Positions 9,241 through 34,218 are shown, counted from the stretch's first letter. The stretch is 64,000 nt of DNA from an uncultured Candidatus Saccharibacteria bacterium (GCA_965230915.1 OZ246395.1:858431-922430); one strand, 5' to 3'. Program-made: numbers and translations. The notes: generated from the letters alone by a model not told the origin.

Positions 9241-9244
9241 TTTT

Positions 9245-12330: not shown

Positions 12331-12365
12331 TCTTCCTACAATCACACCATACTATTTATCAACTA

Positions 12366-12593: not shown

Positions 12594-12684
12594 ATAAACT
12601 GTATTCATTGACTGCCATATAGAATTCCTCTATCTTATAACTTATATAGTTACATATTTGTAACAATATTTATAAACAACCTTT

Positions 12685-17865: not shown

Positions 17866-17942
17866 TTGAGGGAGAAAAGGTAGTTAATAACGCTTGATAA
17901 AGGATACTGGTTAAAGTGGTTAATCTGTGAAAATTATATGTC

Positions 17943-17982
17943 TCCGCGGGCTGGACGTTATCAGAACTGAGGTTTTAGAATT
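17943..17982. repeat. att-like direct repeat, copy 1: the 14-nt 3' end of tRNA-Asn (TCCGCGGGCTGGAC) plus 26 nt identical to copy 2. Left boundary of the tRNA-Asn island
   Basis: 40/40 identity with 18645-18684. The first 14-15 nt equal the 3' acceptor/T-arm end of the tRNA at 19228-19302. Confidence 0.85.
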
Positions 17983-17984
17983 TA

Positions 17985-18046
17985 TTGAAGTTGTTTCGAC
18001 TTGACCTTCCCAAATCTCATCAGACACTAAGTGTAACAACTTGCAA
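17985..18046 (-). ncRNA. Type III hammerhead ribozyme (HHR-1), immediately 3' of gene 18131..18532
   Basis: Minus-sense 5'-UUGCAAGUUGUU^ACAC-UUA-GUGU-CUGAUGA-GAUUUG-GGAAGGU-CAAGUC-GAAA-CAACUUCAA. Conserved CUGAUGA and GAAA cores. Stem I is 4 bp with a triloop, stem II 6 bp with loop GGAAGGU, stem III 7 bp including A15.1:U16.1. Cleavage triplet GUU. Two paralogs covary. Confidence 0.85.
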
Positions 18047-18130
18047 GAATAAAGTATGACTGAGATTTCGGTATTTGAAACCGATTGAAGTGTAGCGCTA
18101 GGCTAAACTCTATTAATCTCAAGCAATACT

Positions 18131-18532
18131 CTACCCTTGCCTCTTGTGTGCTACTTTAAACTTGACCATACCGGCGCTCGTCATGAGCATCCATGATCCT
18201 GGGATAAACTGCACCCAGCCGTCGATCTCAATCTCATCGCCACCATTCCCTCGGTAAACCGAAGCTATTATGTTCAGGACTTTATCCCTGAACTCATCAG
18301 CAACAGTTTCCACAACCTCGCCAGGATTCGTCTGAATCTCGACATACAAATGTGCCGCATCTGGATCCACACTCAAAATCTCTAATCCAAACGCATTCAC
18401 GATTATATCGTCACTTGGCAAGCCATAATCCGTACCCGCCATAACCTTTACTTCACGGCGAATTTTATCTGTGGAATCAATCAAAAATGTCTTAACTCCA
18501 AGATCCATAGCTAACAGTTTAATCAGTGGCAT
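18131..18532 (-). CDS. Hypothetical 133-aa protein, GC-richer cassette gene P1
   Basis: Own promoter (TTTAAA-17-TATAAT) and SD AAGGAG 9 nt before the ATG; followed by HHR-1. No recognisable domain. Confidence 0.7.
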   Translation of the reverse strand: MPLIKLLAMDLGVKTFLIDSTDKIRREVKVMAGTDYGLPSDDIIVNAFGLEILSVDPDAAHLYVEIQTNPGEVVETVADEFRDKVLNIIASVYRGNGGDEIEIDGWVQFIPGSWMLMTSAGMVKFKVAHKRQG

Positions 18533-18585
18533 GGCTTTCGACTCCTTTTGCCATTTCTAAAACATACCTATTCGGAATTAATAGG

Positions 18586-18623
18586 ATTGTGCATGATTAT
18601 ACTATAAATACAGGTCGATTTAA
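18586..18623 (-). promoter_or_regulatory. Sigma70-type promoter of cassette P1 (TTTAAA-17-TATAAT) with upstream CCCATAGTATTT motif
   Basis: rc of 18586-18591 is TATAAT, rc of 18609-18614 is TTTAAA, spacer 17. Motif CCCCATAGTATTT directly upstream, next to the att repeat. Confidence 0.6.
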
Positions 18624-18644
18624 ATACTATGGGGCATAAATGGG

Positions 18645-18684
18645 TCCGCGGGCTGGACGTTATCAGAACTGAGGTTTTAGAATT
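18645..18684. repeat. att-like direct repeat, copy 2 (identical 40 nt), separating cassettes P1 and P2
   Basis: TCCGCGGGCTGGACGTTATCAGAACTGAGGTTTTAGAATT is identical to 17943-17982, 703 bp away. Confidence 0.85.
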
Positions 18685-18694
18685 AGTTAATTGG

Positions 18695-18760
18695 AAATAA
18701 AAAAACCGCCTCATGATTTTGATTGTCGTAATGACTTTCGCGTCATAAAGCGGGTTAATC
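18695..18760 (-). terminator. Terminator-like structured region 3' of cassette gene P2 (nested hairpins, then UUUUUUUAUUU), where P1 has a hammerhead instead
   Basis: Minus-sense CCGCUUUAUGACGCGAAAGUCAUUACGAC...CAUGAGGCGGUUUUUUUAUUU; the inner AUGAC-GCGAAA-GUCAU hairpin sits inside a longer imperfect stem. Confidence 0.4.
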
Positions 18761-18785
18761 TAAACAGGTTAAGGGTTAGATTCCC

Positions 18786-19139
18786 TTACTTGAGGAGCTT
18801 TAGCTCAGATAGAGGGGGATATGCTGATCCCCAAAAGAAATACTTATCCGAAAATCCAGAACCACTCAATAGTAAGTAGCTAACCGAGGCCATAGGTGTC
18901 GAAGTAAATCGATATTGGTTCCTATCAATTTCCGTCAAGCCAACTCGCCCGTTTCCCCAGACCATAACGCCTGCTAACAGCTGAGGTAAGTATGTTTTCC
19001 GATGTTCTCCTAAATAGGAGTACACTGGGAACATCATTTGGATCAACTCTTCATCCGAGTTGCTAAATACAGGAATCCGCCCCTCTGCTAGAGTCTTTGC
19101 CCAACCACTTACGATAGCATTTAAATCGTCGGTGATCAT
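18786..19139 (-). CDS. Hypothetical 117-aa protein, cassette gene P2, first gene after tRNA-Asn
   Basis: ORF directly downstream of a consensus promoter abutting the tRNA; visibly higher G+C than flanks; no recognisable domain. Confidence 0.65.
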   Translation of the reverse strand: MITDDLNAIVSGWAKTLAEGRIPVFSNSDEELIQMMFPVYSYLGEHRKTYLPQLLAGVMVWGNGRVGLTEIDRNQYRFTSTPMASVSYLLLSGSGFSDKYFFWGSAYPPLSELKLLK

Positions 19140-19186
19140 TATGTCCTCTTTCTTTGTGGATGAACCTTCTAATGAGAATTTGTGAG

Positions 19187-19215
19187 ATTTTAACAGTTTA
19201 CGACAAGCCTGTCAA
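19187..19215 (-). promoter_or_regulatory. Consensus sigma70 promoter (TTGACA-17-TAAAAT) immediately 3' of tRNA-Asn, reading into P2
   Basis: rc of 19210-19215 is TTGACA, rc of 19187-19192 is TAAAAT, spacer 17. Preceded by CCTATAGTG. Confidence 0.65.
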
Positions 19216-19227
19216 CACTATAGGATA

Positions 19228-19302
19228 CGTGGCTCCGCGGGCTGGACTCGAACCAGCAACCTCGAAGTTAACAGCTTCTTGCTCCACCATTGAGCTACCG
19301 CG
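19228..19302 (-). tRNA. tRNA-Asn (anticodon GTT), CCA encoded
   Basis: rc gives TCCGCGG-TA-GCTC-AATGGTG-GAGC-A-AGAAG-CTGTTAA-CTTCG-AGGTT-GCTGG-TTCGAGT-CCAGC-CCGCGGA-G-CCA, a cloverleaf with 7-bp acceptor stem, U33 and anticodon GUU. Confidence 0.9.
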
Positions 19303-19319
19303 GAATATTGGTGCTGCAG

Positions 19320-19348
19320 AGATTTTACTATAGAAACCAGGATTTTCC
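19320..19348 (-). promoter_or_regulatory. Promoter of tRNA-Asn (TTGGAA-17-TAAAAT)
   Basis: Minus-sense CGTTGGAAAATCCTGGTTTCTATAGTAAAATCTCTGCAGC, ending ~15 nt before the tRNA 5' end. Confidence 0.6.
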
Positions 19349-19413
19349 AACGAGAATAAAGCTATTTTGAACATCTTAATGAACAAATCTTCAAATTAAT
19401 ATATCCTTAATTT

Positions 19414-19950
19414 ATGTTCTTTAGACGAACAAAAAATCGAAATACCGGTTCATACATCCGCGACGGCGTATTTGCTGCAAATGACGGCATTATTACCACC
19501 TTTGCAGTTATAGCCGGGTCACAAGGTGCGGGCATTACAGCCGCAGTTGTCATTATTTTAGGCTTTGCAAACCTTTTCGCCGACGGCTTTTCTATGGCCA
19601 GTGGAAACTACCAAGGTATAGAAAGCGAAGAAGCGTACAACAGAGCAAAACACCTCTTTATTCCTCGCGAATCAGAGCCGGCACTTTTGCTACACCCGAT
19701 AATTACCTTCTTATCTTTTATAGTAGCCGGGCTAGCACCACTTTTGCCATATATTTTAGGGCTAGAAAATGAATTCGAGCTTTCTATGGCACTTGTCGCA
19801 GTTTCACTTTTTGCAGTCGGATGTGTTCGAGGATACTATTCAAACAAGGCATTTTTCAGATGCGGATTAGAAAGCCTGGCCATCGGAGGAATTGCAGCAG
19901 CAACTGCTTATTTCATAGGTTACTTTATAGAAACCTACGTTATTAAATAA
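19414..19950 (+). CDS. VIT1/CCC1-family (DUF125) membrane protein, putative Fe/Mn transporter
   Basis: ANDGIITTFAVIAGSQGAG signature plus multiple TM segments. Confidence 0.75.
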   Translation: MFFRRTKNRNTGSYIRDGVFAANDGIITTFAVIAGSQGAGITAAVVIILGFANLFADGFSMASGNYQGIESEEAYNRAKHLFIPRESEPALLLHPIITFLSFIVAGLAPLLPYILGLENEFELSMALVAVSLFAVGCVRGYYSNKAFFRCGLESLAIGGIAAATAYFIGYFIETYVIK

Positions 19951-19955
19951 TCAAA

Positions 19956-20330
19956 TTACCAAGATTTTAAAAAACTTTCTTTAGAATAATCAGTCTTAGA
20001 ATCTTCAAAATAACTATCTTTATTGTTTGCTAAAAAATTGTCCACAGCGCTTTTGTTAAAAACTCTAAATAAAATTGCAATCGGAGTTAGGAACACATAA
20101 AAAACTATAGACAGAATAACTTTCGACATTACCTTGCCCATTGCTTCAGAAAATTGCAGCCAGTAGGTCGAAATTACTCGATTTAATTTAAAATAAATTA
20201 TGTCGTTAATTAAAAGCCAAGCAGCGACTAATATAAAAATTTTGTTTTCTGTAAAGTAAAATAAAACCAAAAAAAATAGTAGAAGCGCATTTATTGTTTT
20301 ATAAACCTCTGAGTCAGAAAGTTTTTTCAT
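19956..20330 (-). CDS. Small polytopic membrane protein (SxtJ-like partner of the carbamoyltransferase). Start moved to the internal ATG MKKLSD...
   Basis: The track ORF starts at a TTG that overlaps the DUF5989 gene; the internal ATG at 20328-20330 sits 2 nt after the DUF5989 stop. 3-4 hydrophobic helices. Confidence 0.6.
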   Translation of the reverse strand: MKKLSDSEVYKTINALLLFFLVLFYFTENKIFILVAAWLLINDIIYFKLNRVISTYWLQFSEAMGKVMSKVILSIVFYVFLTPIAILFRVFNKSAVDNFLANNKDSYFEDSKTDYSKESFLKSW

Positions 20331-20331
20331 T

Positions 20332-20484
20332 TTAAAACAATGTATAAATAAATGGCGAAAGTGCGGTGCCTGAAGTTGACACAATTAACAACCCAACTAT
20401 TAATAAAATAATAATGATTGGCAACAACCACCATTTTTTATTTTGTATTAAAAAGTCGAATAAATCTTTTAAAGTTTCTAGCAT
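20332..20484 (-). CDS. DUF5989-family (SxtK-like) 50-aa membrane mini-protein; absent from the ORF track because it is <60 aa
   Basis: Manual translation gives MLETLKDLFDFLIQNKKWWLLPIIIILLIVGLLIVSTSGTALSPFIYTLF*. The KKWWLLPI...PFIYTLF pattern is typical of small proteins found next to NodU/CmcH carbamoyltransferases. 2-nt gap to the upstream stop. Confidence 0.7.
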   Translation of the reverse strand: MLETLKDLFDFLIQNKKWWLLPIIIILLIVGLLIVSTSGTALSPFIYTLF

Positions 20485-20485
20485 A

Positions 20486-22351
20486 TTAATCAGTTCCTGC
20501 CCTACTAATCATATCGTATTTTTCGACAAATTCTGGCTGCGAATTTTTGTCGAAAAAAAAGTTTCCCATCACTAAATAGTCCATATCAGTTTTCATAAAG
20601 CACAAATATGCTTCATGTGGAGAACAAACGATAGGCTCTCCCCGAACGTTAAAACTTGTATTTACGATTACTCCATAGCCGGTCTTCTCTTTAAATGCAC
20701 TTATTAGCTCCCAATATTTTGGATTTGTATCTTTATTTACCGTTTGTAAACGAGCCGAATAATCTAAATGCGTAATTGCCGGTAAATTCGACCTTTGAAA
20801 ATATAATTTCGGTTGAACATCTAATGCATGATAATTTTGGGGCAACGGTTTGCGAAGTTCTTTGACAATATCAGCGACCAACAGCATATATGGCGATGTA
20901 ATATTTATATCAAAATATTTTTGCGTATCCTCTTGCAGAACCGACGGAGCAAATGGACGAAACCCTTCGCGAAATTTTATTTTTAAGTTTAGCTTTTTTT
21001 GCATTTCAGGATTTCTGGCATCACCTAAAATGCTGCGATTGCCAAGTGCACGAGGTCCCCATTCCATTCTGCCTTGAAACCAACCAACGACATTTCCTTC
21101 AGATAAAAGCTCGGCTGCTTTTTTGGTTAAATCATTAAAATTTTCATAGTATTTAAATTGAGCGTTAAAATTTTTTGCAACGCTTTTAATTTGTGAATCA
21201 CTAAATTCCGGGCCCAAATAACTGCCTTGCATCGAATCATTTTCATTTACTTTTCTATTGCCACCAAAATATAGATAGTATGCTGCGAGCGCGGCGCCTA
21301 AAGCTCCTCCAGCGTCGCCGGCGGCGGGTTGAATCCAGATATTTTTAAATAATTTTTCTTTTACAATTTTGCTGGTAGAAACACAATTTAGGGCGACGCC
21401 TCCCGCTAAACATAAATTTTCTGAACCGGTTAAAGCTTTTGTAGTACGTGCCATTTTTACAACGACTTCATCTGTAATTTGCTGAATAGCCAGAGCTAAA
21501 TTACAATGGCACTGTTCCAAATTTTGTTCAGGATCACGAGTTTTAAATCCAAATAATTTCTGCCATTTATCTTCGTTTATCATTCGTTCACCAATACAAT
21601 AATCAAAATATTCTTGATTTAAGTATATTGATCCATCACTCTTTATATCTACAATTTCTTGTTTAATAATTTCTTTATACTTTTTGATATCGGGCGATTG
21701 AGGATTTCCATATGGAGCCAAACCCATTAATTTATATTCACCCGAATTTACTTTGAATCCAAGAAAATATGTGAATGACGAATATAAAAACCCTAAAGAA
21801 TTTGGGAAATTCATTTCCTTTATATTTGTTATCTTATTGCTGACACCGTGTGAAATAGAAGCCGTTGCCCATTCACCAACGCCATCAATTGTTAAAATTG
21901 CAGCTTCTTCAAAAGGTGATGGATAAAATGCACTCGCAGCGTGCGACAGGTGATGGTCAGAAAATAAAATTTTATTTAACTTTGCGTCACTATCAATTTT
22001 TTTCAGTTCCTTTTTTATTTCTTCTTTTAAAAATAATTTTTCTTTAATCCAAACCGGAATTGCATTTAAAAATGAAACTAATCCACGCGGGGCAAAAATA
22101 TAATATGTTTCAATTAATCTTTCGAATTTTTTGAATGGCTTATCATAAAAAACAACGTTATCTATTTCGTTTAAACTAATATCGGCAAATTCCAAACAAA
22201 ATTTAATTGCATTAGTAGGAAATAATGCGTCTTGTTTTTTTCGTGTAAATCTTTCTTCTTGTGCCGCCGCAATAATTTCCCCATTTTTTATAAGTGCCGC
22301 TGCTGAATCGTGGTAAAAGGCTGAAATTCCAAGTATATATTTATCGTTCAT
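20486..22351 (-). CDS. Carbamoyltransferase, NodU/CmcH family (621 aa)
   Basis: YILGISAFYHDSAAALIKNGEIIAAAQEERFTRKK N-terminus and HHLSHAASAF motif. Confidence 0.85.
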   Translation of the reverse strand: MNDKYILGISAFYHDSAAALIKNGEIIAAAQEERFTRKKQDALFPTNAIKFCLEFADISLNEIDNVVFYDKPFKKFERLIETYYIFAPRGLVSFLNAIPVWIKEKLFLKEEIKKELKKIDSDAKLNKILFSDHHLSHAASAFYPSPFEEAAILTIDGVGEWATASISHGVSNKITNIKEMNFPNSLGFLYSSFTYFLGFKVNSGEYKLMGLAPYGNPQSPDIKKYKEIIKQEIVDIKSDGSIYLNQEYFDYCIGERMINEDKWQKLFGFKTRDPEQNLEQCHCNLALAIQQITDEVVVKMARTTKALTGSENLCLAGGVALNCVSTSKIVKEKLFKNIWIQPAAGDAGGALGAALAAYYLYFGGNRKVNENDSMQGSYLGPEFSDSQIKSVAKNFNAQFKYYENFNDLTKKAAELLSEGNVVGWFQGRMEWGPRALGNRSILGDARNPEMQKKLNLKIKFREGFRPFAPSVLQEDTQKYFDINITSPYMLLVADIVKELRKPLPQNYHALDVQPKLYFQRSNLPAITHLDYSARLQTVNKDTNPKYWELISAFKEKTGYGVIVNTSFNVRGEPIVCSPHEAYLCFMKTDMDYLVMGNFFFDKNSQPEFVEKYDMISRAGTD

Positions 22352-22395
22352 TACAAAGTATTTATATAGTGAAGAAGTTTTTTGAGCAATAGAAT

Positions 22396-23607
22396 CTATT
22401 TAGAAAATACTTTGTTTTGTATTATCTTTGAAACAAATTCGTGGCCAAGTTTATTCCAATGCGCATCTTTTATATAATAAAATTTTTGCCAATCACTTTC
22501 ATTCATGAAATCTTCGGACAAATTTATAATATGACTTTCTTCATAACCTGCAGAAATAATTGCGTTTTTGAAAGTATTAAGTGGGAGGTCTCCATCAATA
22601 TCTGAACCTTCATAAGGCGCTTTATAACTATCTTCTTTTATTTTTAAATTTAACCTAGAAGGAATCACCACAAAATACATATCGATACCTTTTTCATCTG
22701 AAATCTTTTTTGCTTCAATTAAAACCTGCTTTAATTTTTCGTATACTGCATCGCGGTCCGGCTGAAAAGTTTTATTTACATCATCAAAACTTGTGTATTT
22801 ATTATTTGAAATATTTTTATCGTACAAAATTATTTCCTTAGTCTCATAACAGTTTTTATATACACGTACACCTTTATTGTCTGACTCAACTCGGACTACG
22901 TTTGCTCGCGCTTTTAAATAAGTCCCAAAAGAAGAATGTTCTATAAGTGGAACAACCGTACTTTCTACTAGTGGCCTTAATAAACTAGAGATAGGGGAAT
23001 TATCTGAGAAATAACTTTTATCACCCGGACAATTTTTAGACCATTCGCCAGGCATCATAGTTACAATATGCGACGGATAAAAACTCCATACAACTTTTTT
23101 TGGACTTAGCAATTCTACGTCTCGTTTAAAAGCTGCTAATTGTACATCGAAAGGACCACCCCAAATTCCAGCATTATTCATATTTAAAAGTGCAGGAAAA
23201 CTTTCATTATCATTTACCCCAAACCCAAATGTAAATGAATCACCAACAGCTAAAGGTCTACCAACTTCTGAGTCTATAGAGGTTTTACGCAAACCGTATT
23301 GATCAATATGATAAATATATTCCCATTCGGGGCCGCAATGAACCACATAACTATTCTGAGGATAACTATTATAGACAAGTGAATAACCGAATGAAGAGAT
23401 CAGAGTATTCTGTTCTACATCGCCACATTTTTCTTTCATTAAATTATCTTTTGTTGCGTTTATATTGTAGAAAATGGTTTCTGAAATAAACCAAGTCACT
23501 AAAATAGTAATAATTAAAATTGAAATTTTTCCAAAAATTGATTTTGAGGAAGATTTTTTAGGATTCTCGGAATTTATAAATTGAGCATTTTCTTGATCGA
23601 ATTCCAC
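22396..23607 (-). CDS. Membrane-anchored SGNH/GDSL-family hydrolase-like protein (AlgX/AlgJ-like, possible polysaccharide O-acetylation or esterase role)
   Basis: N-terminal TM; block I AVGDSFTFGFG; block V DAHWNKLGH (DxxH). Confidence 0.6.
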   Translation of the reverse strand: MEFDQENAQFINSENPKKSSSKSIFGKISILIITILVTWFISETIFYNINATKDNLMKEKCGDVEQNTLISSFGYSLVYNSYPQNSYVVHCGPEWEYIYHIDQYGLRKTSIDSEVGRPLAVGDSFTFGFGVNDNESFPALLNMNNAGIWGGPFDVQLAAFKRDVELLSPKKVVWSFYPSHIVTMMPGEWSKNCPGDKSYFSDNSPISSLLRPLVESTVVPLIEHSSFGTYLKARANVVRVESDNKGVRVYKNCYETKEIILYDKNISNNKYTSFDDVNKTFQPDRDAVYEKLKQVLIEAKKISDEKGIDMYFVVIPSRLNLKIKEDSYKAPYEGSDIDGDLPLNTFKNAIISAGYEESHIINLSEDFMNESDWQKFYYIKDAHWNKLGHEFVSKIIQNKVFSK

Positions 23608-23623
23608 TTTTCAAGTCTAGATT

Positions 23624-23935
23624 TTAGAAAGCATATTTGCAAACACCCATTTGGTCGGGATAAGTCGGTTCGGGATAAACACATTTTTGTCCAATCGGAC
23701 AACTTTTACCTGTGAAACCTCCACATTTAATTTCTGATGGCATTAGCACATTTTTATCTGCAAAATTTAGCTGATAGAAAAAAATAACGATAATTCCGAG
23801 GGTCATCAATATTCCTAATAACAACAAAAAGGATTGTGTAGCGTTGTAGGTTTCTTTAGCCATATTATAGGATTCCCAATGAATAATTTGTTCGCGTCTA
23901 TATTTATTGTATAGCGGTATTAATATAAGCGTCAA
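23624..23935 (-). CDS. Small membrane protein with Cys-rich C-terminus (likely starts at internal MAKETY..., ~80 aa)
   Basis: One TM helix (LLLLGILMTLGIIVIFF) then CGGFTGKSCPIGQKCVYPEPTYPDQMGVC with 5 Cys. Confidence 0.45.
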   Translation of the reverse strand: MTLILIPLYNKYRREQIIHWESYNMAKETYNATQSFLLLLGILMTLGIIVIFFYQLNFADKNVLMPSEIKCGGFTGKSCPIGQKCVYPEPTYPDQMGVCKYAF

Positions 23936-23948
23936 TAAAACAGAAAAA

Positions 23949-23973
23949 GGCGGAGTTAATCTCCGCCTTTTTT
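23949..23973 (-). terminator. rpoD terminator (GGCGGAG-TTAAT-CTCCGCC flanked by A/T tracts, bidirectional type)
   Basis: Hairpin directly after the rpoD stop; minus-sense U-tract UUUUUCUGUUUUAUU. Confidence 0.75.
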
Positions 23974-23976
23974 AGA

Positions 23977-25260
23977 TTAGTTTAAGTAATCTCTTAGCTT
24001 TCTACTTCGAGATGGATGTCTTAGCTTTCTTAAGGCCTTCGCTTCGATCTGTCTGATACGTTCGCGTGTAACACCAAATACTTTTCCGACTTCTTCTAAG
24101 GTTCTTGGCTTATGATCTTTTAGACCAAAGCGCAATTCTAAAACTTTGCGTTCGCGTTCACTTAAAGTATCTAAAACACCTTCAATATGGCCTTTTAGTA
24201 ATTCATATGAAGCCATATCTTCTGGAGTTTCAGCATCTTCATCGTGAATGAATTCAGCAAGTTCCGTATCTCCTTCTGTACCAACTTTAGCTTGCAAGCT
24301 TGATGGTTCTTGAGAAATTTTTAGAATTTCTTCGACTTTTGCAGGTTCAATTTTTAGAACACGACCAATTTCTTTCGCGGTTGGCTCTCTTTCGTATTTT
24401 TGCTCAAGTTCACGTTGTACACGTTTTAACTTATTGATTGTTTCAATCATATGAACAGGAATACGAATTGTTCTAGCCTGATCAGCAATTGCGCGTGTAA
24501 TGGCTTGTCGAATCCACCATGTTGCATATGTTGAGAATTTAAATCCTCTTCTCCAATCAAACTTGTCGACAGCACGCATTAAACCGATATTCCCTTCTTG
24601 AATTAAATCAGAGAAAGTTAACCCACGATTCATATAACGTTTTGCGATAGAAACAACAAGTCTCAAGTTTGAATTGATCAACTTTTCGCGAGCTTTTTTC
24701 ATTTTGAAAGTCTTGCCGTTTTTTGTGAAATCTTCTAATTGCTGTTTCGCTTCTTCGACTCTATCTTTTTGCTGCTTATCGGTCATTTCGTTTTCGATCA
24801 TTAACTTCGCAATGTGTTTATAAGTTGGATGTTTTAATCCCTGCTTAGTTAATGTTTCCATGGCTTCTTTGTAACCTATGGCTTCGATCATTTTTGCAAG
24901 TTCGATTTCTTCTTTACCTGTTAACAAAGTTTCGCGTCCAATTTCTCGTAAATACATGCGAACTGGATCTCCAGTTATTGCGCGGTCTAATGTTGACTGT
25001 AAAGTCGTATCGTTTAATTCTTTTTCTAAATCAGCTAGTTCTTGATCAGAAACAAGTTCTACTTGCTCGACATCAGTAACTTCGATTTTTTCGTCGGCAA
25101 AAGTTGAATATAATGCATCAAGCAAATCAACATCTTCTTCAGCCTCTGGAACTGCGGCCATAACTTCTTTATAGGTTACATAACCTTTACTTCGACCTTT
25201 GGTCACAAGGTTTTTGATTTTTGGATTGCCTTCTAGGCGTTTCTGAATTTCTTCTGACAT
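23977..25260 (-). CDS. rpoD: RNA polymerase sigma-70 factor RpoD
   Basis: Regions 2-4 conserved: [37 protein letters not shown]...[25 protein letters not shown]; C-terminal HTH. Confidence 0.95.
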
Positions 25261-25266
25261 GAATTA

Positions 25267-27111: not shown

Positions 27112-27180
27112 ATTAAAAATTCAAAATGAAAATATTAGTTTCACTATAGCAGAATATTTTATTTATAAATTTAATACTGT

Positions 27181-27230
27181 GCTTAGCAACCATTAGTTTA
27201 TCCAATTTGGATTCTTTATGGTTGCTAAGC
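27181..27230. repeat. Perfect 13-bp inverted repeat (GCTTAGCAACCAT...ATGGTTGCTAAGC) between islet gene A and dnaG; insulating hairpin/terminator
   Basis: Read directly; 24-nt loop; no strong U-tract. Confidence 0.5.
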
Positions 27231-27253
27231 AACGCAATGTTCGATAACTTTTC

Positions 27254-27871
27254 TTACCGAATAATAAAACCGCCGAAATCAGTGTACCTGAGTGGCTGGC
27301 TTTCCTCACTACCAGCGGGAACCATTACGCGACAGTGGCGTAATCGAGTAAGTACAAGAACTTCTCCCCAGAAGGTTTGTAAATACAGCATTTCCTCGGT
27401 ATGGCGATAAAGCACATGTCTTCCAGTAGTCATGTCTAGCATACTGCAAACTTCAATCTGTCCCGATAGACTGTCTGAATAGGTTATGGTCGCCCCCATT
27501 GTTTCTTCTTTGCCATACCATTTTTCTGGTTTCTCTATCGCTTCGTTTATTGCAAACTCAGAAATATGGTCAGACTGCTCATTCCAGAGTGGCAGGCCGC
27601 GAGACTCATCTGGAATTGTCTCGTATCTGACTAATTGCCCCTTGAGGTCTGTGACTTCACGCACAACTCTGAAGTAAGGCTGAACTCGACCAGTTAGGAT
27701 TTCCTGCATGTTCCTGCCATAAGACTTCACGTACGGCGACATCTCTAAAACAAACTGATCCCGGTCAGAGTTTAATTTCCGGCTTATGGTTACTTCTGTT
27801 CCATCGTTTGTCTGTCCAACCAAGAACCCGTTAGACATCCTAAGTGCTACGGAAAGTAACAAAGGATACAT
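27254..27871 (-). CDS. Hypothetical protein, GC-richer islet gene A (start at internal ATG MYPLLL...)
   Basis: Extended -10 TGGTATAAT (rc of 27924-27932) places the transcript start downstream of the track TTG start at 27922. N-terminal hydrophobic segment; no recognisable domain. Confidence 0.6.
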   Translation of the reverse strand: MYPLLLSVALRMSNGFLVGQTNDGTEVTISRKLNSDRDQFVLEMSPYVKSYGRNMQEILTGRVQPYFRVVREVTDLKGQLVRYETIPDESRGLPLWNEQSDHISEFAINEAIEKPEKWYGKEETMGATITYSDSLSGQIEVCSMLDMTTGRHVLYRHTEEMLYLQTFWGEVLVLTRLRHCRVMVPAGSEESQPLRYTDFGGFIIR

Positions 27872-28022
27872 AAAAACCCGTCTCTTTCTTCTATTGAACA
27901 CTGTGCAGCAATTCTGCGGCAATATTATACCACCCCATAGTATCTACTGCCCTTTTAATAACCTATCTAGTGCTTTTTTATATTTTCACCGGACAATAAA
28001 ACTGTTACCATTAAATTACAAA

Positions 28023-28721
28023 ATGAAAAAAAGAAATTTAATACTAACCATAGTACTTTTCATTCTCTTTCTTATCGGAACCTATTCCAGTCAATTCTTA
28101 TATAAAAATTTTTCTAACCAAGCTGCATTAGATATAGATGGATTAACCGGAGAATATGACCCTCTTCATACAACAGCCATTTTTAATAATGAAATGGTTT
28201 TCGTACCATCGCAACAATTTGCAGACGCGCATGTATTGGGCGATGACGACTCAGAAGATATAGAAGATCCAGATTATAAACGCATTGAAGTCGATTTAAC
28301 TAATCAAAAATTATATGCATTCGAAGGCGATAAAAAAGTTATGGAATTTTTAGTATCAACAGGAAAATGGGGAAAAACTCCAACGGGTGAATTTAGAATT
28401 TGGACAAAACTTCGCTACACAAGAATGTCAGGAGGAAGCAAAGAGCTACGAACCTATTACAATTTACCGAATGTTCCATTTACAATGTTTTTTTCTAATG
28501 CTGAAATTCCTGCATCTCGCGGATTTGGAATTCACGGAACTTATTGGCACGATAACTTCGGACACCCTATGAGTCACGGATGTGTAAATATGAAAACCGA
28601 AGAAGTTGAACAATTATACTATTGGGCAAACCCTGAACTTGGGGAAGAAAAATCTATTCGGGCAACGAAAGATAATCCTGGAACAAAAATTATTATCTAC
28701 GGAAAAGCTCCCAATTATTAA
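28023..28721 (+). CDS. L,D-transpeptidase (YkuD domain) with N-terminal signal/TM
   Basis: GIHGTYWHDNFGHPMSHGCVNM catalytic His/Cys motif. Start placed at MKKRNLILTIVLFILFLIG because the upstream track start overlaps the convergent gene. Confidence 0.8.
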   Translation: MKKRNLILTIVLFILFLIGTYSSQFLYKNFSNQAALDIDGLTGEYDPLHTTAIFNNEMVFVPSQQFADAHVLGDDDSEDIEDPDYKRIEVDLTNQKLYAFEGDKKVMEFLVSTGKWGKTPTGEFRIWTKLRYTRMSGGSKELRTYYNLPNVPFTMFFSNAEIPASRGFGIHGTYWHDNFGHPMSHGCVNMKTEEVEQLYYWANPELGEEKSIRATKDNPGTKIIIYGKAPNY

Positions 28722-28791
28722 AAATTTGAAGGTATAGCAGAAGACAAACTTAACATTGTATGCACAATGAAAGCTCGCCTTCTGCGTCAAC

Positions 28792-29613
28792 CTAGTTACT
28801 AAACAAGTATGGAATCAACAACTGTCGTTGTGGCGCGGGTTCATCCAAAAATCGGATTACTTTGGAGTTTCCAATTTTCAGAGAATAGATGTCGACTGCT
28901 TTATCGATCGTCATAGGAATACTTACAGCAGTCGCACCGCCGTCGGCGTTAAGCGCGAAGCCACTGATCAGATTTCCATTCTGCTCGATGCTCCAGCCGG
29001 AAACTTCTTGCGCAGTGAAATCTATTTCACCTGAGACCTTGAGTTCAAATGAAGTAAAAACTTTCGAATCTACGATCTCGATGAAATCACGATCGCCAAA
29101 ATACTGAGCGGTTGGCAGAATTCTGAATTCGCCGTCCTGCAGTTGAAAGTTAGGCTCTTTGCCTTTCCCAAACGAGAAATGGTTGAGGTCAATAAGGCCA
29201 ATCTGACCGGCTTCGCCTGTTACAGTGTATTGAACCGCAAACAAAATACGCGTTCCTTGGGCCGTAATGGTATAAGGATTATCGAACCTCAAATCAATCT
29301 GTGATGTACGCAGATTTTGATCGATAGACCCACCCGCAAATCCGAGTATAGATGCTGCAGTCATTGTTATATTACTGAACTGCAAAATCTTAGGATCTGC
29401 TCTCAAACCGACCTCAATATTAGTGACTTCGTAATCACTTATATCGGATGCGTAAATGGGAATGGTAACAAGCGTGCCTGGAGCACCCTTGAACGGACTA
29501 ACCGTGACGACAACGTCTGAAAGTTGGGCATTAACAATTGACCAACCTACAAGCATCGCAACTACTGCCAAAAGTAGCGGAATTACAAGCATAATCCAGC
29601 GGCGGATATACAT
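28792..29613 (-). CDS. Secreted hypothetical protein (signal peptide, beta-rich), islet gene B
   Basis: MYIRRWIMLVIPLLLAVVAMLVGWSIVNAQ signal; strong SD GGAGGA 7 nt before the ATG; upstream CCCATAGTTAT motif. Confidence 0.65.
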   Translation of the reverse strand: MYIRRWIMLVIPLLLAVVAMLVGWSIVNAQLSDVVVTVSPFKGAPGTLVTIPIYASDISDYEVTNIEVGLRADPKILQFSNITMTAASILGFAGGSIDQNLRTSQIDLRFDNPYTITAQGTRILFAVQYTVTGEAGQIGLIDLNHFSFGKGKEPNFQLQDGEFRILPTAQYFGDRDFIEIVDSKVFTSFELKVSGEIDFTAQEVSGWSIEQNGNLISGFALNADGGATAVSIPMTIDKAVDIYSLKIGNSKVIRFLDEPAPQRQLLIPYLFSN

Positions 29614-29854
29614 CGGGTTCCTCCATATATAAACAAAACCATCTCGGGGTAACTAGGTTATCAATGTTCTAACGAACAAGATAATTCTACATTTTTATAA
29701 GCGCTTTGGCTATAACTATGGGTTTCGTATTTAATTTTGATAATTGGGAAAAATTGAATTTTCCAGGACGTCACTAATTGTTTCTTTAAAGGCTTTTGGC
29801 CCTTCATTGCAATTGCAATGAGAAACATTTAGTGACGCCTGGTCTTGCACGAAC

Positions 29855-30478
29855 TTAGAGAGCTAACGTGACAAAGTCGTAGTTGGTTTTGCCAGCCTCA
29901 GAATATCCACTTTGGATATCTTTGGTGCCGGCTTTGACCACAAGGCGCTTCACAACATCGAACTCGACGACAGAGTCGCGAGTTTCGGTCTCGAGCGGAA
30001 GCTCGATCGTCACGATCTCACCGACCATGATGCGGCCGGAATAGGCGACTTGCTTCATGAACTTGCGCTGGCTTTCCTTCAGCAAGTAATACTTGCTGCC
30101 GCCATCGTCACGGTACTCTGACCATTCGGAATCCGGAATTAACGCTATTACACCTAGCTGAGTCTTCAAACGAGCGTCTTCCCAGCGGGCAGAACCGCCT
30201 TTCGGGAAATCAGCAAACACATGCCCAACGGGGCGCTGCGGCTTTACGTTATCCGGGTCGGCAACGATAATACCGACGCGCGTAAACGCTAGGTCGTAAG
30301 TCAAATCCCCCGTCGGAATATAGCACGGCAACATTTCGATGCGCCGGCGGCGATCTGCCTCCTCGTACATCTTAATTGTGACCGGCATAAGTTTCGGCTC
30401 GCCAGCTTTCACAGGCACAGTCAATTCGACGCCGACCAACAACTCTTCCTCAGTGTACATACGCATAAGACCTGTCAT
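29855..30478 (-). CDS. Hypothetical protein, GC-rich islet gene C (start at internal ATG MTGLMRMY)
   Basis: Promoter TTGGAA-16-TATAAT (-10 is rc of 30534-30539) lies inside the longer track ORF, so M20 is used with purine-rich RBS AGAAAGAGAGAC. Visibly GC-rich. Confidence 0.6.
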   Translation of the reverse strand: MTGLMRMYTEEELLVGVELTVPVKAGEPKLMPVTIKMYEEADRRRRIEMLPCYIPTGDLTYDLAFTRVGIIVADPDNVKPQRPVGHVFADFPKGGSARWEDARLKTQLGVIALIPDSEWSEYRDDGGSKYYLLKESQRKFMKQVAYSGRIMVGEIVTIELPLETETRDSVVEFDVVKRLVVKAGTKDIQSGYSEAGKTNYDFVTLAL

Positions 30479-30533
30479 TTTTGTCTCTCTTTCTATAGTG
30501 TGCAATATATCCTGCCTTTGCAAGAATGGCTGC

Positions 30534-30576
30534 ATTATACCTCATTTTAGGGGATTTTCCAAATACTATGGGATGG
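30534..30576 (-). promoter_or_regulatory. Promoter of islet gene C: CCATCCCATAGTATT-TTGGAAAATCC-...-TATAAT-GCAGCC, sharing TTGGAAAATCC and GCAGC with the tRNA-Asn promoter
   Basis: Direct comparison with 19320-19348 (minus sense). Confidence 0.55.
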
Positions 30577-30652
30577 AACCAGGGGAATATTAGCCTGTAA
30601 CAGCGCAATTGCTGCACCATCGGCTCCAGGCATATGTTGTAATAAAAATTAT

Positions 30653-31855
30653 CTACAAATCCTCAATAGCTGAAACCTCGATATTTAAACCCCTAGAGGC
30701 GACCATACTTTTTGCTTCATCAATTCTATCTTTTGGTACAAAAATAATTCGAATCCCTTCGATCGGAACACCATCTTTTAAACAAATCTCAGATTTATAG
30801 TCACTCTGTGGAATAATAACTTCAGAGGTAATTCCAGAATATTCTCCGGTAGTTTTATCTTGCTGTCTCCAGCTAACATCGCTGCCTGTCTGGATATCAG
30901 CCCCCACAAAATATAAAACAGGAAAGCTTTCTCTGATAAGCTGTTCGTGTTCTTTTTCTTTGTCATTTTTATCCGGTTTTTGTAAAAAAGCTAAGGTGTC
31001 TTGTAAATCTCTGATTTTTATTTGTATCGACTCGTAAAAAACATTTTCTTCACCCATTTTTTGTGCGCGTTCAGTAAACTCTCTTAAATCCCTTCTAATT
31101 GATTCTTCTGAAACACCCCCGTCACCTCTTTTAGCATATCCTACTGCATCTTTATAGTCATTCAACTTAGCTAAACTTATGTATTTATTATTTAAATTTG
31201 CACTCCCAAAAACGCCTTCCCCGGAAGCGATCGGCATTTTGTCACGAAGAAATTCTTGAGGCCTTAAACCATGATCAAGAACACCTTGTAATGATGCGCT
31301 GGTTGAACCATGCGCGCCAAAAACCCCATTTTCAAAGATGGATAAAGCTAAGTCTGGGTTATCAGCATACAACTCTGCATATAGCTGGCGATCTTCAAGA
31401 AAATCTGTATAGTTCCATTTACCTAATCTTTCTTCAGGGCTTACAGAACGGCCCAATAATTCGCCATCAAAGACAATTTTATTTATAGCTTCCAGTCTTC
31501 TTCTTTTCTCTTCTTCATTAATCGGTAAATATTCAAGTTTAGCCAAACAACTTTGATAAGAATTAAATAAATTTTGATAACCCCAACCAGCAATGAACTG
31601 GTCAACTTCTGAAAGATTGCTCATAAACTCATCTTTTAGGCCTTCTTCGTCTGGCTGTTCTGTTGATTGTGGAACTTCTTGAGGTTGTGGCTTTTGCTCT
31701 TGGGTTATCGAATAGATACCACTATGGGTATTAATTAGGTTTGGATTAATACTAAAATAGCCCTTTTCATCGCCGGCTTGATCGGACAATTTAAATTCTT
31801 CAGGTGTAGGATCATTTATGCCTTCTATAGCATAAATCGAGTCTGAGCTTGGCAT
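30653..31855 (-). CDS. Hypothetical 400-aa protein abutting the left att repeat of the tRNA-Arg island
   Basis: Long ORF, AT-rich like the host; no recognisable motifs; ATG 27 nt downstream (minus sense) of the att fragment, with no SD. Confidence 0.65.
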   Translation of the reverse strand: MPSSDSIYAIEGINDPTPEEFKLSDQAGDEKGYFSINPNLINTHSGIYSITQEQKPQPQEVPQSTEQPDEEGLKDEFMSNLSEVDQFIAGWGYQNLFNSYQSCLAKLEYLPINEEEKRRRLEAINKIVFDGELLGRSVSPEERLGKWNYTDFLEDRQLYAELYADNPDLALSIFENGVFGAHGSTSASLQGVLDHGLRPQEFLRDKMPIASGEGVFGSANLNNKYISLAKLNDYKDAVGYAKRGDGGVSEESIRRDLREFTERAQKMGEENVFYESIQIKIRDLQDTLAFLQKPDKNDKEKEHEQLIRESFPVLYFVGADIQTGSDVSWRQQDKTTGEYSGITSEVIIPQSDYKSEICLKDGVPIEGIRIIFVPKDRIDEAKSMVASRGLNIEVSAIEDL

Positions 31856-31881
31856 TACTTAAATAATATCATTAGAAGTTA

Positions 31882-31894
31882 TGGTGCACCCAAG
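31882..31894. repeat. att-like direct repeat: 13-nt copy of the tRNA-Arg 3' end (TGGTGCACCCAAG); left boundary of the tRNA-Arg island
   Basis: Identical to 34142-34154 (the 3' end of the tRNA at 34142-34218). Confidence 0.7.
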
Positions 31895-31944
31895 TGATGT
31901 TAATTGGAATCGGGTTTTTGAATTTATATTGAAATTTTAGGAAA

Positions 31945-31998
31945 GTAGTTTCGACTTGATCTTCCCAAGTCTCATCAGGGACTATGTCCGACTAGAAC
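31945..31998 (-). ncRNA. Type III hammerhead ribozyme (HHR-2), 3' of gene 32105..32845
   Basis: Minus-sense 5'-GUUCUAGUC^GGAC-AUA-GUCC-CUGAUGA-GACUUG-GGAAGAU-CAAGUC-GAAA-CUACU. Canonical GUC cleavage triplet. Stem I and II covary with HHR-1 and HHR-3. Confidence 0.85.
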
Positions 31999-32104
31999 AC
32001 CGGAAAGAGAGGTTGAAGAAAAAATTGCAACGATTACTCGCGCAGCTTCAACATCTTCCGATGTTCGGTTGATCTACAAAATTCAAAATGAAATTCGCCG
32101 AAAA

Positions 32105-32845
32105 CTAGGCAGACTTCTCAATCCTCTTGAGTGCCAAAGCCTTCTGGCCAAATGGATTGACTTCCAACTGCTCATTATACTTGGGCAAGGCGTTTATTAG
32201 AGGCAAATGCTGATCCTCCATATATCCAAGCCCTATAAAACGATCCGCCAAAGCCTCATCGCGAAGATACATTCCCCGAGAATGAATCGCCTGCCTAAAC
32301 AGGGCAATATCATCATGACTGAGAGCTTCAACATCTGAATTCTCGAGGAGAAATCCCCACTTTTTAGCGAAACCTTGAAGGCCTTTTGCATCCATAGACG
32401 AAATCGCCTGATGTGAGTATTTAACTCTTAGGCCGGCCACGAAATCAGCGAATGGCATGTACCAAAACTCTTCAGTTCGTAAACGAACTTCTTCTGGTTC
32501 CCATTCATAACCTGTGGCAAAAATACCTAGAGCCACAACTCGATCATTCAGTTCTTCAGTCCACCCGCGGTGGCGGATAGTTTCGCGAAGATAAGGCGTG
32601 TCCTCGATCCCCGAAATATCTTCCTCCGTCACATCAAAGAGCCAACCCTGCAGGTACTGCAATAGGCTGACCTCCGTTGTTCCGAACATCATTAATCCGG
32701 TCAGCCCACCATTGGCAGAGTGCGCCTTGTTCGTTGGCCGAGCAGGTATACTGGGAACTGCTTCCTGTGCGACTTGCTCTTCGACCTTTGAAAAAGGAAA
32801 CAAATTAACAACAAACGATACGAAGGTGTTGATAATGTTTTGCAT
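32105..32845 (-). CDS. Hypothetical 246-aa protein, GC-rich cassette gene P3
   Basis: SD AGGAGA 10 nt before the ATG; followed by HHR-2. Confidence 0.7.
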   Translation of the reverse strand: MQNIINTFVSFVVNLFPFSKVEEQVAQEAVPSIPARPTNKAHSANGGLTGLMMFGTTEVSLLQYLQGWLFDVTEEDISGIEDTPYLRETIRHRGWTEELNDRVVALGIFATGYEWEPEEVRLRTEEFWYMPFADFVAGLRVKYSHQAISSMDAKGLQGFAKKWGFLLENSDVEALSHDDIALFRQAIHSRGMYLRDEALADRFIGLGYMEDQHLPLINALPKYNEQLEVNPFGQKALALKRIEKSA

Positions 32846-32881
32846 GGTAGAAGTTTCTCCTGCTTACTGAAAGTTTTTATA

Positions 32882-32925
32882 TTGCTCGAAGTAACTTTCG
32901 ATTACTCAAAAACTAATTCGAGCAA
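32882..32925. repeat. Inverted repeat TTGCTCGAA-(26 nt)-TTCGAGCAA between cassettes P4 and P3
   Basis: Perfect 9-bp arms read directly; lies between HHR-3 and the P3 start. Confidence 0.45.
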
Positions 32926-32953
32926 TATATTTGTAGATCAATTTTTAATGTAC

Positions 32954-33010
32954 AAAACTGTTTTCGATCTGAGCTTCCCAGATCTCATCAGGCGCTATGC
33001 GCGAACAGCG
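32954..33010 (-). ncRNA. Type III hammerhead ribozyme (HHR-3), ~270 nt 3' of gene 33281..33838
   Basis: Minus-sense 5'-CGCUGUUC^GCGC-AUA-GCGC-CUGAUGA-GAUCUG-GGAAGCU-CAGAUC-GAAA-ACAGUUUU. Stem I GCGC/GCGC and stem II GAUCUG/CAGAUC; both covary against the paralogs. Confidence 0.85.
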
Positions 33011-33280
33011 GGCAAAAGTGAAGCGGAAAGCAAAAGATTAGATAATGATCGAAATGATCATCAAATTCTCATGCTTTAAAAACATGCTTCACTGCCCGTC
33101 TGGCAAACTTTGAAACGAATCCAATGTAGAATTCCCTGAGCTAGTATTTGACACTTTAAGCTATTCCTAGGTAAGTATCTTTCGATCTTACACACTATCA
33201 ATAGCGCCGTACCTTGCGGTCTTGGCAGTCTTGAGCTTTTCATCGGGCTCGTGTTGGATTTACAAACTTCTTACTACCAC

Positions 33281-33838
33281 CTACTTGGGTTCGTATATCC
33301 ACTCGATGTGGTCGAATACGAATGGGCGCGGCGCTTCAACAGAGACGATGGCTTTTAGGCCAGCCTCTTCGATTTTCGCCTTTGGATTGGCGAAGGAGAT
33401 GATCTCCTGCAAAGCGCTTTCCCTCGTCCCATCACGGCCTTCCTGGTGATACCAGACAGGAATTTCCTTCGTCTGAGGACCACTCGGCATAGCCGAAGGA
33501 ACAGAAACCACGACACCCATCCGCGGAAGCGGAACTAGATCTCTCGCGAAATCAGCGGAGGTAAAACCTTCCCATGGAAGTCGTACTAAATCCTTCACAC
33601 CTTCCTGCCAAACCACTACTTTCAGTAGTGCCGATGCCAACGGCGCCGGTACATTCTGAAACAACAAAACTGCATCCTTCTCGACAGCCTTTTTTGCCAA
33701 ATCCAAAAGGACTGGCTTTGTCTCCTCGCCCGTTGCGGGGAAGGTGACATTGATGGTTTCGACAACCTCAACTTGGAGTGTGCCGAAGTCTGGGGCGTGC
33801 CGACCAATAACAATAGCGCGAATCGTTGCATTTTGCAT
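33281..33838 (-). CDS. Hypothetical 185-aa protein, GC-rich cassette gene P4
   Basis: RBS GAAAGGG; ~250-nt leader from a consensus promoter next to tRNA-Arg; followed by HHR-3. Confidence 0.7.
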   Translation of the reverse strand: MQNATIRAIVIGRHAPDFGTLQVEVVETINVTFPATGEETKPVLLDLAKKAVEKDAVLLFQNVPAPLASALLKVVVWQEGVKDLVRLPWEGFTSADFARDLVPLPRMGVVVSVPSAMPSGPQTKEIPVWYHQEGRDGTRESALQEIISFANPKAKIEEAGLKAIVSVEAPRPFVFDHIEWIYEPK

Positions 33839-34095
33839 GGTGCTTTCAACCCTTTCAAGATTGAAACTTACATCAGTTTCTAAGCTCCCATTGGAGTTAG
33901 CTTCAGATCACCTGAAGAAACAACCTACGTTTTTCCATCGTAAGCTGATTCCTCAGGCAATCTTCAATTAGTTTGCCAAATTTTTAATGTACTTTTTGAG
34001 ACTTTTTGTGGGGTATAGCCTTTAGGGCCTTGCCGTTAAAAAAGCTCAGAAATCAATGGACTTTTTGATATCCGAACCTTTCAACTTAATGGCTA

Positions 34096-34124
34096 CATTA
34101 TATTACGAAAAGGCTAGCCTGTCA
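34096..34124 (-). promoter_or_regulatory. Perfect consensus sigma70 promoter (TTGACA-17-TATAAT) immediately 3' of tRNA-Arg, reading into the island
   Basis: rc of 34119-34124 is TTGACA, rc of 34096-34101 is TATAAT; preceded by CCTATAGTA. Confidence 0.7.
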
Positions 34125-34141
34125 ATACTATAGGCTAGTGT

Positions 34142-34218
34142 GGTGCACCCAAGAGGATTCGAACCTCTGGCCTCAACTTCCGCAAAGTTGCGCTCTATCC
34201 AGCTGAGCTATGGGTGCT
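34142..34218 (-). tRNA. tRNA-Arg (anticodon GCG), CCA encoded
   Basis: rc gives GCACCCA-TA-GCTC-AGCTGGATA-GAGC-G-CAACT-TTGCGGA-AGTTG-AGGCC-AGAGG-TTCGAAT-CCTCT-TGGGTGC-A-CCA. Arg-type D and T arms; anticodon loop UUGCGGA. Confidence 0.85.

Follow-up and report, generated by a model that had tools for sequence, protein, structure and literature searches.

The stretch of DNA considered here, which we call the window, comprises 64,000 nucleotides (nt; 64 kb) of an uncultured Candidatus Saccharibacteria bacterium (GCA_965230915.1 OZ246395.1:858431-922430), and our subject is a 9-bp word, CC(C/T)ATAGT(A/G) or CCYATAGTR, that sits at the promoters of a set of accessory genes within it. The host is a WWE3-like bacterium of the Candidate Phyla Radiation (CPR); by identity of the DnaG protein, its closest relatives in the genome collection are L003 (82%, labeled uncultured Candidatus Saccharibacteria), L004 (WWE3, 54%), and L005 (Patescibacteria, 46%). 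A first-pass annotation had described the motif as promoter-proximal and fused to the −35 box, and the promoters bear this description out. When 17-35 kb of the window was scanned for consensus promoters, the top four sites were the four exact copies of the 11-mer CCYATAGTRTT. A TTGACA-like and a TATAAT-like hexamer 16-18 nt apart with a gene downstream on the same strand, as in a sigma-70-type promoter, were found at all four, with 12 of 12 consensus positions at the promoter beside tRNA-Arg (P_Arg), 11 of 12 at that beside tRNA-Asn (P_Asn), and 10 of 12 at both P1 and the promoter of gene C (P_C). The motif of P_Arg, CCTATAGTA (34126-34134, minus strand), lies 6 nt past the CCA of tRNA-Arg and abuts TTGACA (34120-34125), with TATAAT at 34097-34102. 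That of P_Asn, CCTATAGTG (19216-19224, minus strand), lies 5 nt past the CCA of tRNA-Asn and abuts TTGACA (19210-19215), with TAAAAT at 19187-19192; the promoter heads a 117-amino-acid (aa) ORFan. P1 heads a 133-aa ORFan and carries CCCATAGTA (18625-18633, minus strand) 7 nt past a copy of the tRNA-Asn 3′ end, abutting TTTAAA (18619-18624) and followed by TATAAT (18596-18601). The same string, CCCATAGTA, precedes gene C (29855-30478) at 30564-30572 on the minus strand, where the −35 is TTGGAA (30557-30562) and the −10 TATAAT (30534-30539). Two further promoters share the arrangement: P_B of gene B (28792-29613), whose one-mismatch variant CCCATAGTT (29714-29722, minus strand) stands 1 nt upstream of TAGCCA-17-TAGAAT, and the promoter of a 72-aa ORFan, where CCCATAGTG (61523-61531, plus strand) stands 2 nt upstream of TTGACC (61534-61539)-17-TATATT (61557-61562). 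Across these six promoters the 9-mer is on the gene strand, and its gap to the −35 is 0, 0, 0, 0-1, 1, and 2 nt. Two more copies adjoin a −10 box instead of a −35. The promoter of a 101-aa ORFan has the variant CCTATAGTT (61164-61172, plus strand) 4 nt upstream of TATAAT (61177-61182), and the region between the divergent ykuD and gene A carries CCCATAGTA at 27934-27942 on the plus strand, inverted relative to gene A, so that the minus strand reads TACTATGGGG-TGG-TATAAT.

The degree to which the word is kept is best seen against the sequence around it. Mean pairwise identity over eight motif-bearing promoters is 0.84 for the motif, 0.85 for the −10, 0.65 for the −35, 0.30 for the spacer, and 0.28-0.31 for the flanks; these promoters were picked for carrying the word, so the informative part is the contrast with the spacers. 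Not all the sites first gathered under one motif belong together. Six do, as 9-mers 0-2 nt upstream of a −35, but the others are heterogeneous: the site at 19327-19337 is the −10 region of the promoter of tRNA-Asn itself, and the copy upstream of dnaG (GCTATAGTG) lacks the CC. The strings quoted by the first-pass annotation are all in the window, and several need a shift of 4-21 nt: we place the tRNA-Asn copy at 19210-19224, the tRNA-Arg copy at 34120-34134, and the string upstream of dnaG, TTTCACTATAGCAG, at 27139-27152.

CC(C/T)ATAGT(A/G) is a real, directional 9-bp DNA element. In the window, whose GC content ranges from 32 to 45%, CCYATAGTR occurs seven times, and six of these copies fall within the 10.8% that the gene map leaves intergenic (binomial p = 1e-5). 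The 11-mer CCYATAGTRTT, with its four exact copies, has ten at no more than one mismatch versus 3.3 expected, a count reached in none of 100 shuffles, and CYATAGT is observed 25 times versus 10.2 expected. Among all 7-mers of 5.46 kb of intergenic DNA, CCCATAG, ACTATAG, ATACTAT, and ACTATGG are in the top ten for over-representation, next to words from the tRNA-Asn repeat and the hammerhead core. The exact 9-mer has no copy in host DNA outside the inserted regions, and the sole exact copy inside a coding sequence (CDS), at 31720, is in a non-syntenic 400-aa gene. Promoter zones, which in the formal test leave out the −10 hexamer, hold 5 of the 26 window copies of C[CTG]ATAGT in 1.6% of the bases (p = 6e-5). 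The motif is therefore more than a k-mer of AT-rich DNA, as the shuffles and the intergenic bias both exceed expectation, and we give next to no credence to chance or to −10-like TATAGT hexamers as its source. TATAGT is one mismatch away from TATAAT, and two of the sites first listed, 19327 and 27142, are exactly of that kind, yet the shuffle and binomial tests contradict this explanation, the CC prefix and the fixed position at the −35 are foreign to a −10 box, and unrelated control loci (L007-L040, 466 kb) show no promoter association, with 1 of 127 copies in zones that make up 3.3% of the bases (p = 0.99). A separate observation concerns 55643-55861 (plus strand), where an open reading frame (ORF) for a small membrane protein of about 72 aa, below our 80-aa ORF cutoff, encloses both one-mismatch hits at 55690 and 55747.

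The word has a direction. Its third position varies among T, C, and G with no mirrored change, the base at its end is T without exception, never G, and each promoter has a single copy. The self-complementary 8-mer proposed earlier as the operator of a dimeric regulator, ACTATAGT, fails on these grounds, having no conserved second half-site and being present at none of the listed sites; its single copy is in a CDS at 47433. Another candidate that we rejected is a role in RNA, as a hairpin, a terminator, or a tRNA trailer, since the folds of four motif regions have z scores of −0.6 to +1.0 and no common structure.

The genes behind these promoters are as distinctive as the promoters. Ten genes have a GC content at third codon positions (GC3) of 0.42-0.61 versus 0.21-0.36 for 45 of the 46 others, the exception being 60728-61051 of the recF-udg islet at 0.38. 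Of these ten, eight have the word at their promoter, allowing one mismatch; one more, encoding 246 aa, is a downstream gene of the unit headed by P_Arg. The idea that the motif is restricted to GC-rich or accessory genes thus holds in the window, where it belongs to promoters of island and islet genes. No Pfam or PHROG family matches the ten GC-rich ORFans, and their products are mutually unrelated, which argues that the recurrence of the word does not stem from gene duplication. A search of 5.8 billion proteins gave zero homologues of the 133-aa protein and of the gene C product, and the 185-aa protein beside tRNA-Arg has five homologues, none of them in the phage collection.

Two of the inserts use tRNA genes as integration targets. 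The tRNA-Asn(GTT) gene (19230-19304, minus strand) has its own promoter, TTGGAA-17-TAAAAT (19322-19350), in which TCTATAGTA is present only as part of the −10 region, and it is followed by an islet (17935-19229, minus strand) in which two integrase-less units of one gene each (18659-19229 and 17957-18640) stand in tandem. Each unit, 0.6-0.7 kb in size, closes with an identical 26-nt arm, AATTCTAAAACCTCAGTTCTGATAAC, and an 18-nt copy of the tRNA 3′ end, so that this end is present three times (19230-19247, 18641-18658, and 17939-17956). The tRNA-Arg(GCG) gene (34141-34217, minus strand) is followed by a 2.3-kb, two-gene island (31882-34140, minus strand) that runs from P_Arg through a conserved leader, the 185-aa gene, a hammerhead, the 246-aa gene, and a second hammerhead to a 13-nt copy of the tRNA-Arg 3′ end (31882-31894), which bounds the island and gives the tRNA-Arg core a second occurrence. 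The two tRNAs are the only features in the window to pass Rfam gathering scores. Because the right arm of the island resembles the tRNA-Asn arm, with AAATTC(T/A)AAAACC... shared by the right ends, one element family appears to use two tRNA targets. The third group, between recF and udg (60669-62434, plus strand), consists of four small ORFans of 107, 101, 72, and 114 aa, three with GC3 of 0.42-0.55 and one of 0.38, each with its own promoter, two of which carry the motif. Within the copy at 61523-61531, the TAG doubles as the stop codon of the second ORF of the islet, just upstream. The remaining insertions are between tRNA-Arg and dnaG: L003 has the order metG, tRNA-Arg, ykuD, dnaG, rpoD, with about 1 kb from tRNA-Arg to dnaG and no island, which marks the cassettes, the 400-aa gene, and genes C, B, and A as insertions. 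In L003, L004, and L005 the tRNAs are present without these inserts, and the exact word is absent from the relatives L003-L006. Gene A seems to have been inserted in the 5′ region of dnaG (window 27112-27253 and 27872-28022 versus L003 1735-1840). The gene A promoter (TATAATATTGCCGCA) agrees with the L003 dnaG promoter (TAGAATTGCCTCA) in the −10 and the first transcribed bases, so dnaG and rpoD may now be read through gene A.

This layout explains why the word touches tRNAs at all: every inserted unit starts with its promoter. At each of the three left ends the word is 5-7 nt past the CCA or its copy; the last copy, which abuts the native flank, is not followed by it. Of the earlier statement that both tRNA flanks carry the motif, the 3′ flanks stand, as left ends of inserts, and the copy upstream of tRNA-Asn reduces to a −10 region. 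The same geometry could be read as a recombination signal, that is, an attachment-site (att) arm or cassette-end site for an integrase or recombinase, because at each of the three left ends linked to a tRNA the word is 5-7 nt from the 3′ copy, the right ends share a conserved arm, and one copy is present at the 5′ boundary of almost every GC-rich gene. We regard this as quite improbable. L057, L047, L048, L056, and L004 carry the promoter and the motif with no tRNA close by, L046 has the word inverted and 27 nt from tRNA-Glu, and the sole insertion that could be mapped (L056 versus L067 and the window) has its junction at GTACATT and not at the word; an inverted core-type partner is missing, and no integrase was seen among the window ORFs scanned.

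The 3′ ends of the units are as structured as their heads. Three minus-strand copies of a 59-nt repeat have the CUGAUGA and GAAA cores, the three stems (stem III being open), and the NUH cleavage site of a type III hammerhead; their stem I has 4 bp, and their stem II is conserved (GAnnUGG/UCAnnUC). In an alignment of 13 sequences, ten of them metagenomic, 95.7% of cells are paired versus 27-43% in slid controls, and 9 of 16 pairs show compensatory changes; the metagenomic sequences were picked by a pattern that fixes stem II and the core, so the independent covariation is that of stems I and III. Judged by sequence and predicted pairing, the three repeats are type III hammerhead ribozymes. The first (17987-18043, minus strand) is at the 3′ end of the 133-aa unit and scores 72.7 bits with our own model, built from the alignment; the second (31942-31998, minus strand) follows the 246-aa gene and scores 72.8 bits with that model and 28.3 bits with RF00008, below its gathering score of 48.5; and the third (32955-33011, minus strand), between the 185-aa and 246-aa genes, reaches 77 bits and is followed by GTACATTAAAA. 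The model finds just these three in the window. The same hammerhead variant is present in 15 metagenome stretches of 40-63% GC, and its pattern had no match among viral sequences. Units without a hammerhead close with very stable hairpins: a three-way junction 3′ of gene C (29757-29842; −42.6 kcal/mol, z −6.4) and structures 3′ of gene A (27177-27236; z −6.3) and of the first gene of the recF-udg islet (61050-61160; z −4.0). They lack a U-tract and are therefore not classical terminators. The string GTACATTAAAA recurs at 32943-32953, past the third hammerhead, and 33982-33992, before the 5′ untranslated region (UTR) of the 185-aa gene. L056 has an extra unit, a 30-aa ORF with a hammerhead, between two copies of GTACATT, where L067 and the window have a single-copy site; to judge from this comparison, the GTACATT site looks like a cassette junction of an integron-like kind. 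The leader after P_Arg (33840-34095, minus strand; TTAGAAGGTT...hairpin...TGAGCTTTTT) and the 5′ UTR of the 185-aa gene (CTGAGGAATCAG...CTGAAGCTAACTCCAATGGGAGCTTAGAAA) are both conserved in L047, L056, and L067; no Rfam family matched either, and both may be cis-regulatory RNA.

The word recurs outside the window, in contigs that were found through the hammerhead, homologues of the 185-aa protein, or DnaG and not through the word. L057 reads ...ATCCTATAGTA|TTGACA-17-TACAAT-GCAGGCATT, with its motif CCTATAGTA abutting the −35, and the unit of promoter, small membrane gene, and hammerhead sits between rpsG and radC. L048 has CCTAGAGTA|TTGGAC. In L004 (12330-12630 and 13002-13832), CCTATAGT|TTGACT-17-TATAAT precedes a Trp-rich secreted ORFan with a GC3 of 0.56, and a second copy abuts the −10 of a divergent promoter; since the motif played no part in the choice of this locus, it counts as an independent replication. 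Homologues of the P_Arg promoter and leader are present in L047, L056, and L067, and there the word is inverted and lies in the spacer right after the −35 (TTGACA|CACTATAGGG and TTGACA|TACTATCGG). L046 has the inverted arrangement in the spacer, past tRNA-Glu, and L061 has two copies at two tandem promoters. Over the CPR and hammerhead loci, 8 of 28 copies of C[CTG]ATAGT are in promoter zones that cover 1.2% of the bases (p = 1e-9). CYATAGT as a whole is not enriched in the hammerhead and 185-aa loci (19 copies versus 29.5 expected), so the signal is promoter-specific.

Recurrence of this kind could arise if the word were a passive passenger, an inherited piece of one copied ancestral promoter module with no function of its own, and some of the promoters are indeed kin. 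The leader TTAGAAGGTT...TGAGCTTTTT is common to P_Arg, P_Asn, L047, L056, and L067, and G(Y)AGCCATT after the −10 is common to P_Arg, P_C (where the sequence is GCAGCCATT), and L057. The word, however, has an identity of 0.84 in promoters whose spacers and flanks show background identity (0.28-0.31). L056 and L067 have orthologous promoters that differ ahead of the −35 and agree in the inverted spacer copy, and the word is found at otherwise dissimilar promoters as well (61523, P_B, and L004). We therefore judge the passenger explanation to be distinctly unlikely.

A more serious competitor, though still an unlikely one, has the word contact RNA polymerase (RNAP) directly, either like an upstream promoter (UP) element through the C-terminal domain of the alpha subunit (alpha-CTD) or through sigma region 4, and boost transcription in cis with no dedicated regulator. 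In L057, L048, L004, and the six window promoters, the word stands on the gene strand at about −36 to −44, the position of a proximal UP subsite, and an unrelated phi29-like phage has the same composite at its terminal promoters. The earlier suggestion of a UP-like enhancer fused to the −35 is right about this position, which most window copies share. It does not fit the word itself, which is 9 bp long with a CC...G composition unlike that of UP elements, which are A/T tracts at about −40 to −60, and which is inverted, in the spacer, or both in L047, L056/L067, L046, L061, and gene A, where the alpha-CTD cannot act. Moreover, the word accompanies a perfect TTGACA as often as a weak −35 and so does not look compensatory.

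The phage just mentioned deserves its own description. A viral scan for the composite promoter gave one phi29-like Clostridium-type phage family, about what chance would give. Its member is a 14.6-kb phi29-like podovirus with a DNA polymerase closest to those of Clostridium phages; AACCTATAGTATTGACAC-N-TATAAT stands in both terminal repeats (L044 1-60 and 14400-14465; L045 120-180), and the 9-mer occurs four times versus 0.28 expected. Either these copies are a coincidence or they hint that the word helps sigma-70/sigma-A promoters generally. A viral scan with an 18-mer gave one phage family with no promoter spacing, probably by chance.

Phage-type single-subunit RNAPs offer another source of resemblance, as the promoters of T7, SP6, and K11 share the core ACTATAGG with the word. 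L047 contains CACACTATAGGG, which we take to be the K11 and T7 promoter core, P_Asn has ACACTATAGG, and the paired copies in L004 and L061 would each read a flanking gene in sense. That the word serves such a polymerase is nonetheless very improbable. Conservation extends over 8-9 bp and not the roughly 20 (−17 to +6) of these promoters, with flanks at background identity; five of the eight window copies (P1, P_C, P_B, 61523, and 61164) would yield antisense RNA, transcription from those of P_Arg and P_Asn would cross a tRNA in antisense before anything else, no single-subunit polymerase gene was seen among the window ORFs scanned, and a sigma-70-type promoter is always attached. The first-pass annotation had already called the likeness to T7 and SP6 promoters superficial and the orientations inconsistent, and we agree.

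The enrichment of the word, its position at the −35, its restriction to accessory genes, the insertion architecture, and the recurrence in other CPR contigs are the observations that an explanation has to accommodate, and the one toward which we lean, with the balance slightly in its favor, is that the word is a functional cis element of a portable promoter family and is read by a protein, with a regulator as the leading form of this model. The 9-mer is the upstream edge of a portable, near-consensus sigma-70-type promoter composed of the motif, a TTGACA-like −35, 17 nt, and a TATAAT-like −10. Such promoters head horizontally acquired, GC-richer ORFan units resembling phage morons or cassettes, several of which close with a type III hammerhead or a long hairpin, and which are located at the tRNA-Asn 3′ repeats, at tRNA-Arg and its 3′ repeat, in the ykuD-dnaG region, and between recF and udg. 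We infer reading by a protein, as double-stranded DNA, because the word is kept like a −10 hexamer amid random flanks and spacers, is present once per promoter, and is inverted in the spacer of relatives. The most likely reader would be a trans-acting regulator occupying the core promoter as at an operator, and RNAP contact would be less likely: the word may be upstream of the −35, inverted in the spacer, or beside the −10, always within the RNAP footprint, which fits an operator better than a strictly positioned activator or UP element.

Several points weigh against a protein-read element under a regulator. The window counts cover 64 kb of a 945-kb genome, and the promoters of the 61985 gene and of L049 have no copy of the word. 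The site is short and without dyad symmetry, which is unusual for classical repressor operators. P_Arg, P_Asn, P_C, L047, L056, and L067 share leader or post −10 sequence, so the recurrence partly reflects common descent and not independent selection. Scans of ORFs near the islands and in L004 turned up no gene for a regulator or motif-binding protein, and scans of the island ORFs, 20 further window ORFs, and L004 turned up no integrase. A more elaborate scheme, in which a dedicated DNA-binding protein would switch the dispersed cassettes through a 9-mer operator and the cassettes would be exchanged in an integron-like manner without a known integrase (tagged head promoter, GTACATT junctions, hammerhead or hairpin ends, tRNA 3′ docking), strikes us as unlikely.

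The units behave like elements of known kinds: morons or mobile promoters, integrase-less tRNA-site elements, and hammerhead-delimited genes. Morons are self-contained promoter-gene-terminator units of prophages, and putative mobile promoters are promoter sequences common to non-homologous genes. The units in the window similarly have one ORFan each, their own near-consensus sigma-70 promoter, a structured 3′ end, and a deviant base composition, with one promoter signature heading unrelated genes. Unlike morons, they are in no recognizable prophage, some are tiny insertions at tRNA sites, some would end in a self-cleaving-type ribozyme instead of a terminator, and their promoters bear a conserved 9-mer, which is outside the moron definition. 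Integrase-less derivatives of tRNA-targeting integrative elements are known as cis-mobilizable elements (CIMEs). As in CIME-like elements, direct tRNA 3′ repeats bound the inserts, which have a tandem layout and are missing in a close relative; in contrast, the units are small (0.6-2.3 kb; one or two genes), an integrase gene was not found, and the same arms serve two tRNAs. The strong head promoter, the array of unrelated single-gene units, the structured separators, and the short junction word GTACATT recall integrons, but no IntI was seen, R′/R″ cores (GTTRRRY) are absent, many units have their own promoter, and inspection of the 3′ hairpins by eye revealed no attC core sites (RYYYAAC/GTTRRRY). 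Perreault et al. (2011; PMC3088659) reported hammerheads on the flanks of individual genes, or of short blocks of genes, in regions with prophages or integrases. The predicted type III hammerheads of the window likewise separate or follow individual accessory genes of integrated DNA, an arrangement compatible with transcripts being processed into single-gene mRNAs, and differ in their CPR host, their integrase-less islets flanked by tRNA 3′ repeats, and the tagged head promoter, which is not in that paper. As for the 9-mer tag on promoters across several CPR contigs, we met no description of it in a literature search that covered hammerhead ribozymes and not the motif or CPR promoters.

CPR bacteria, to our knowledge, have tiny genomes and almost no characterized promoters or regulators. 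Against this background, non-homologous acquired genes would appear to bring along a ready consensus promoter with an extra conserved word and often a predicted self-cleaving-type ribozyme at the 3′ end. Such tagged-promoter cassettes offer a concrete, testable model for the expression of foreign genes in CPR bacteria, and the word offers a simple sequence handle for spotting accessory cassettes in their genomes. Should the operator model be right, the mobile genes with this word form a regulon; a word that works in cis would instead amount to a compact and portable enhancer of promoters. Elsewhere in the window, 8848-13056 encodes three stand-alone receiver-domain proteins and a CHASE/PAS histidine kinase, none with a recognizable DNA-binding output domain, and 1-8511 (minus strand) is a single ORF of at least 2837 codons that runs off the left end.

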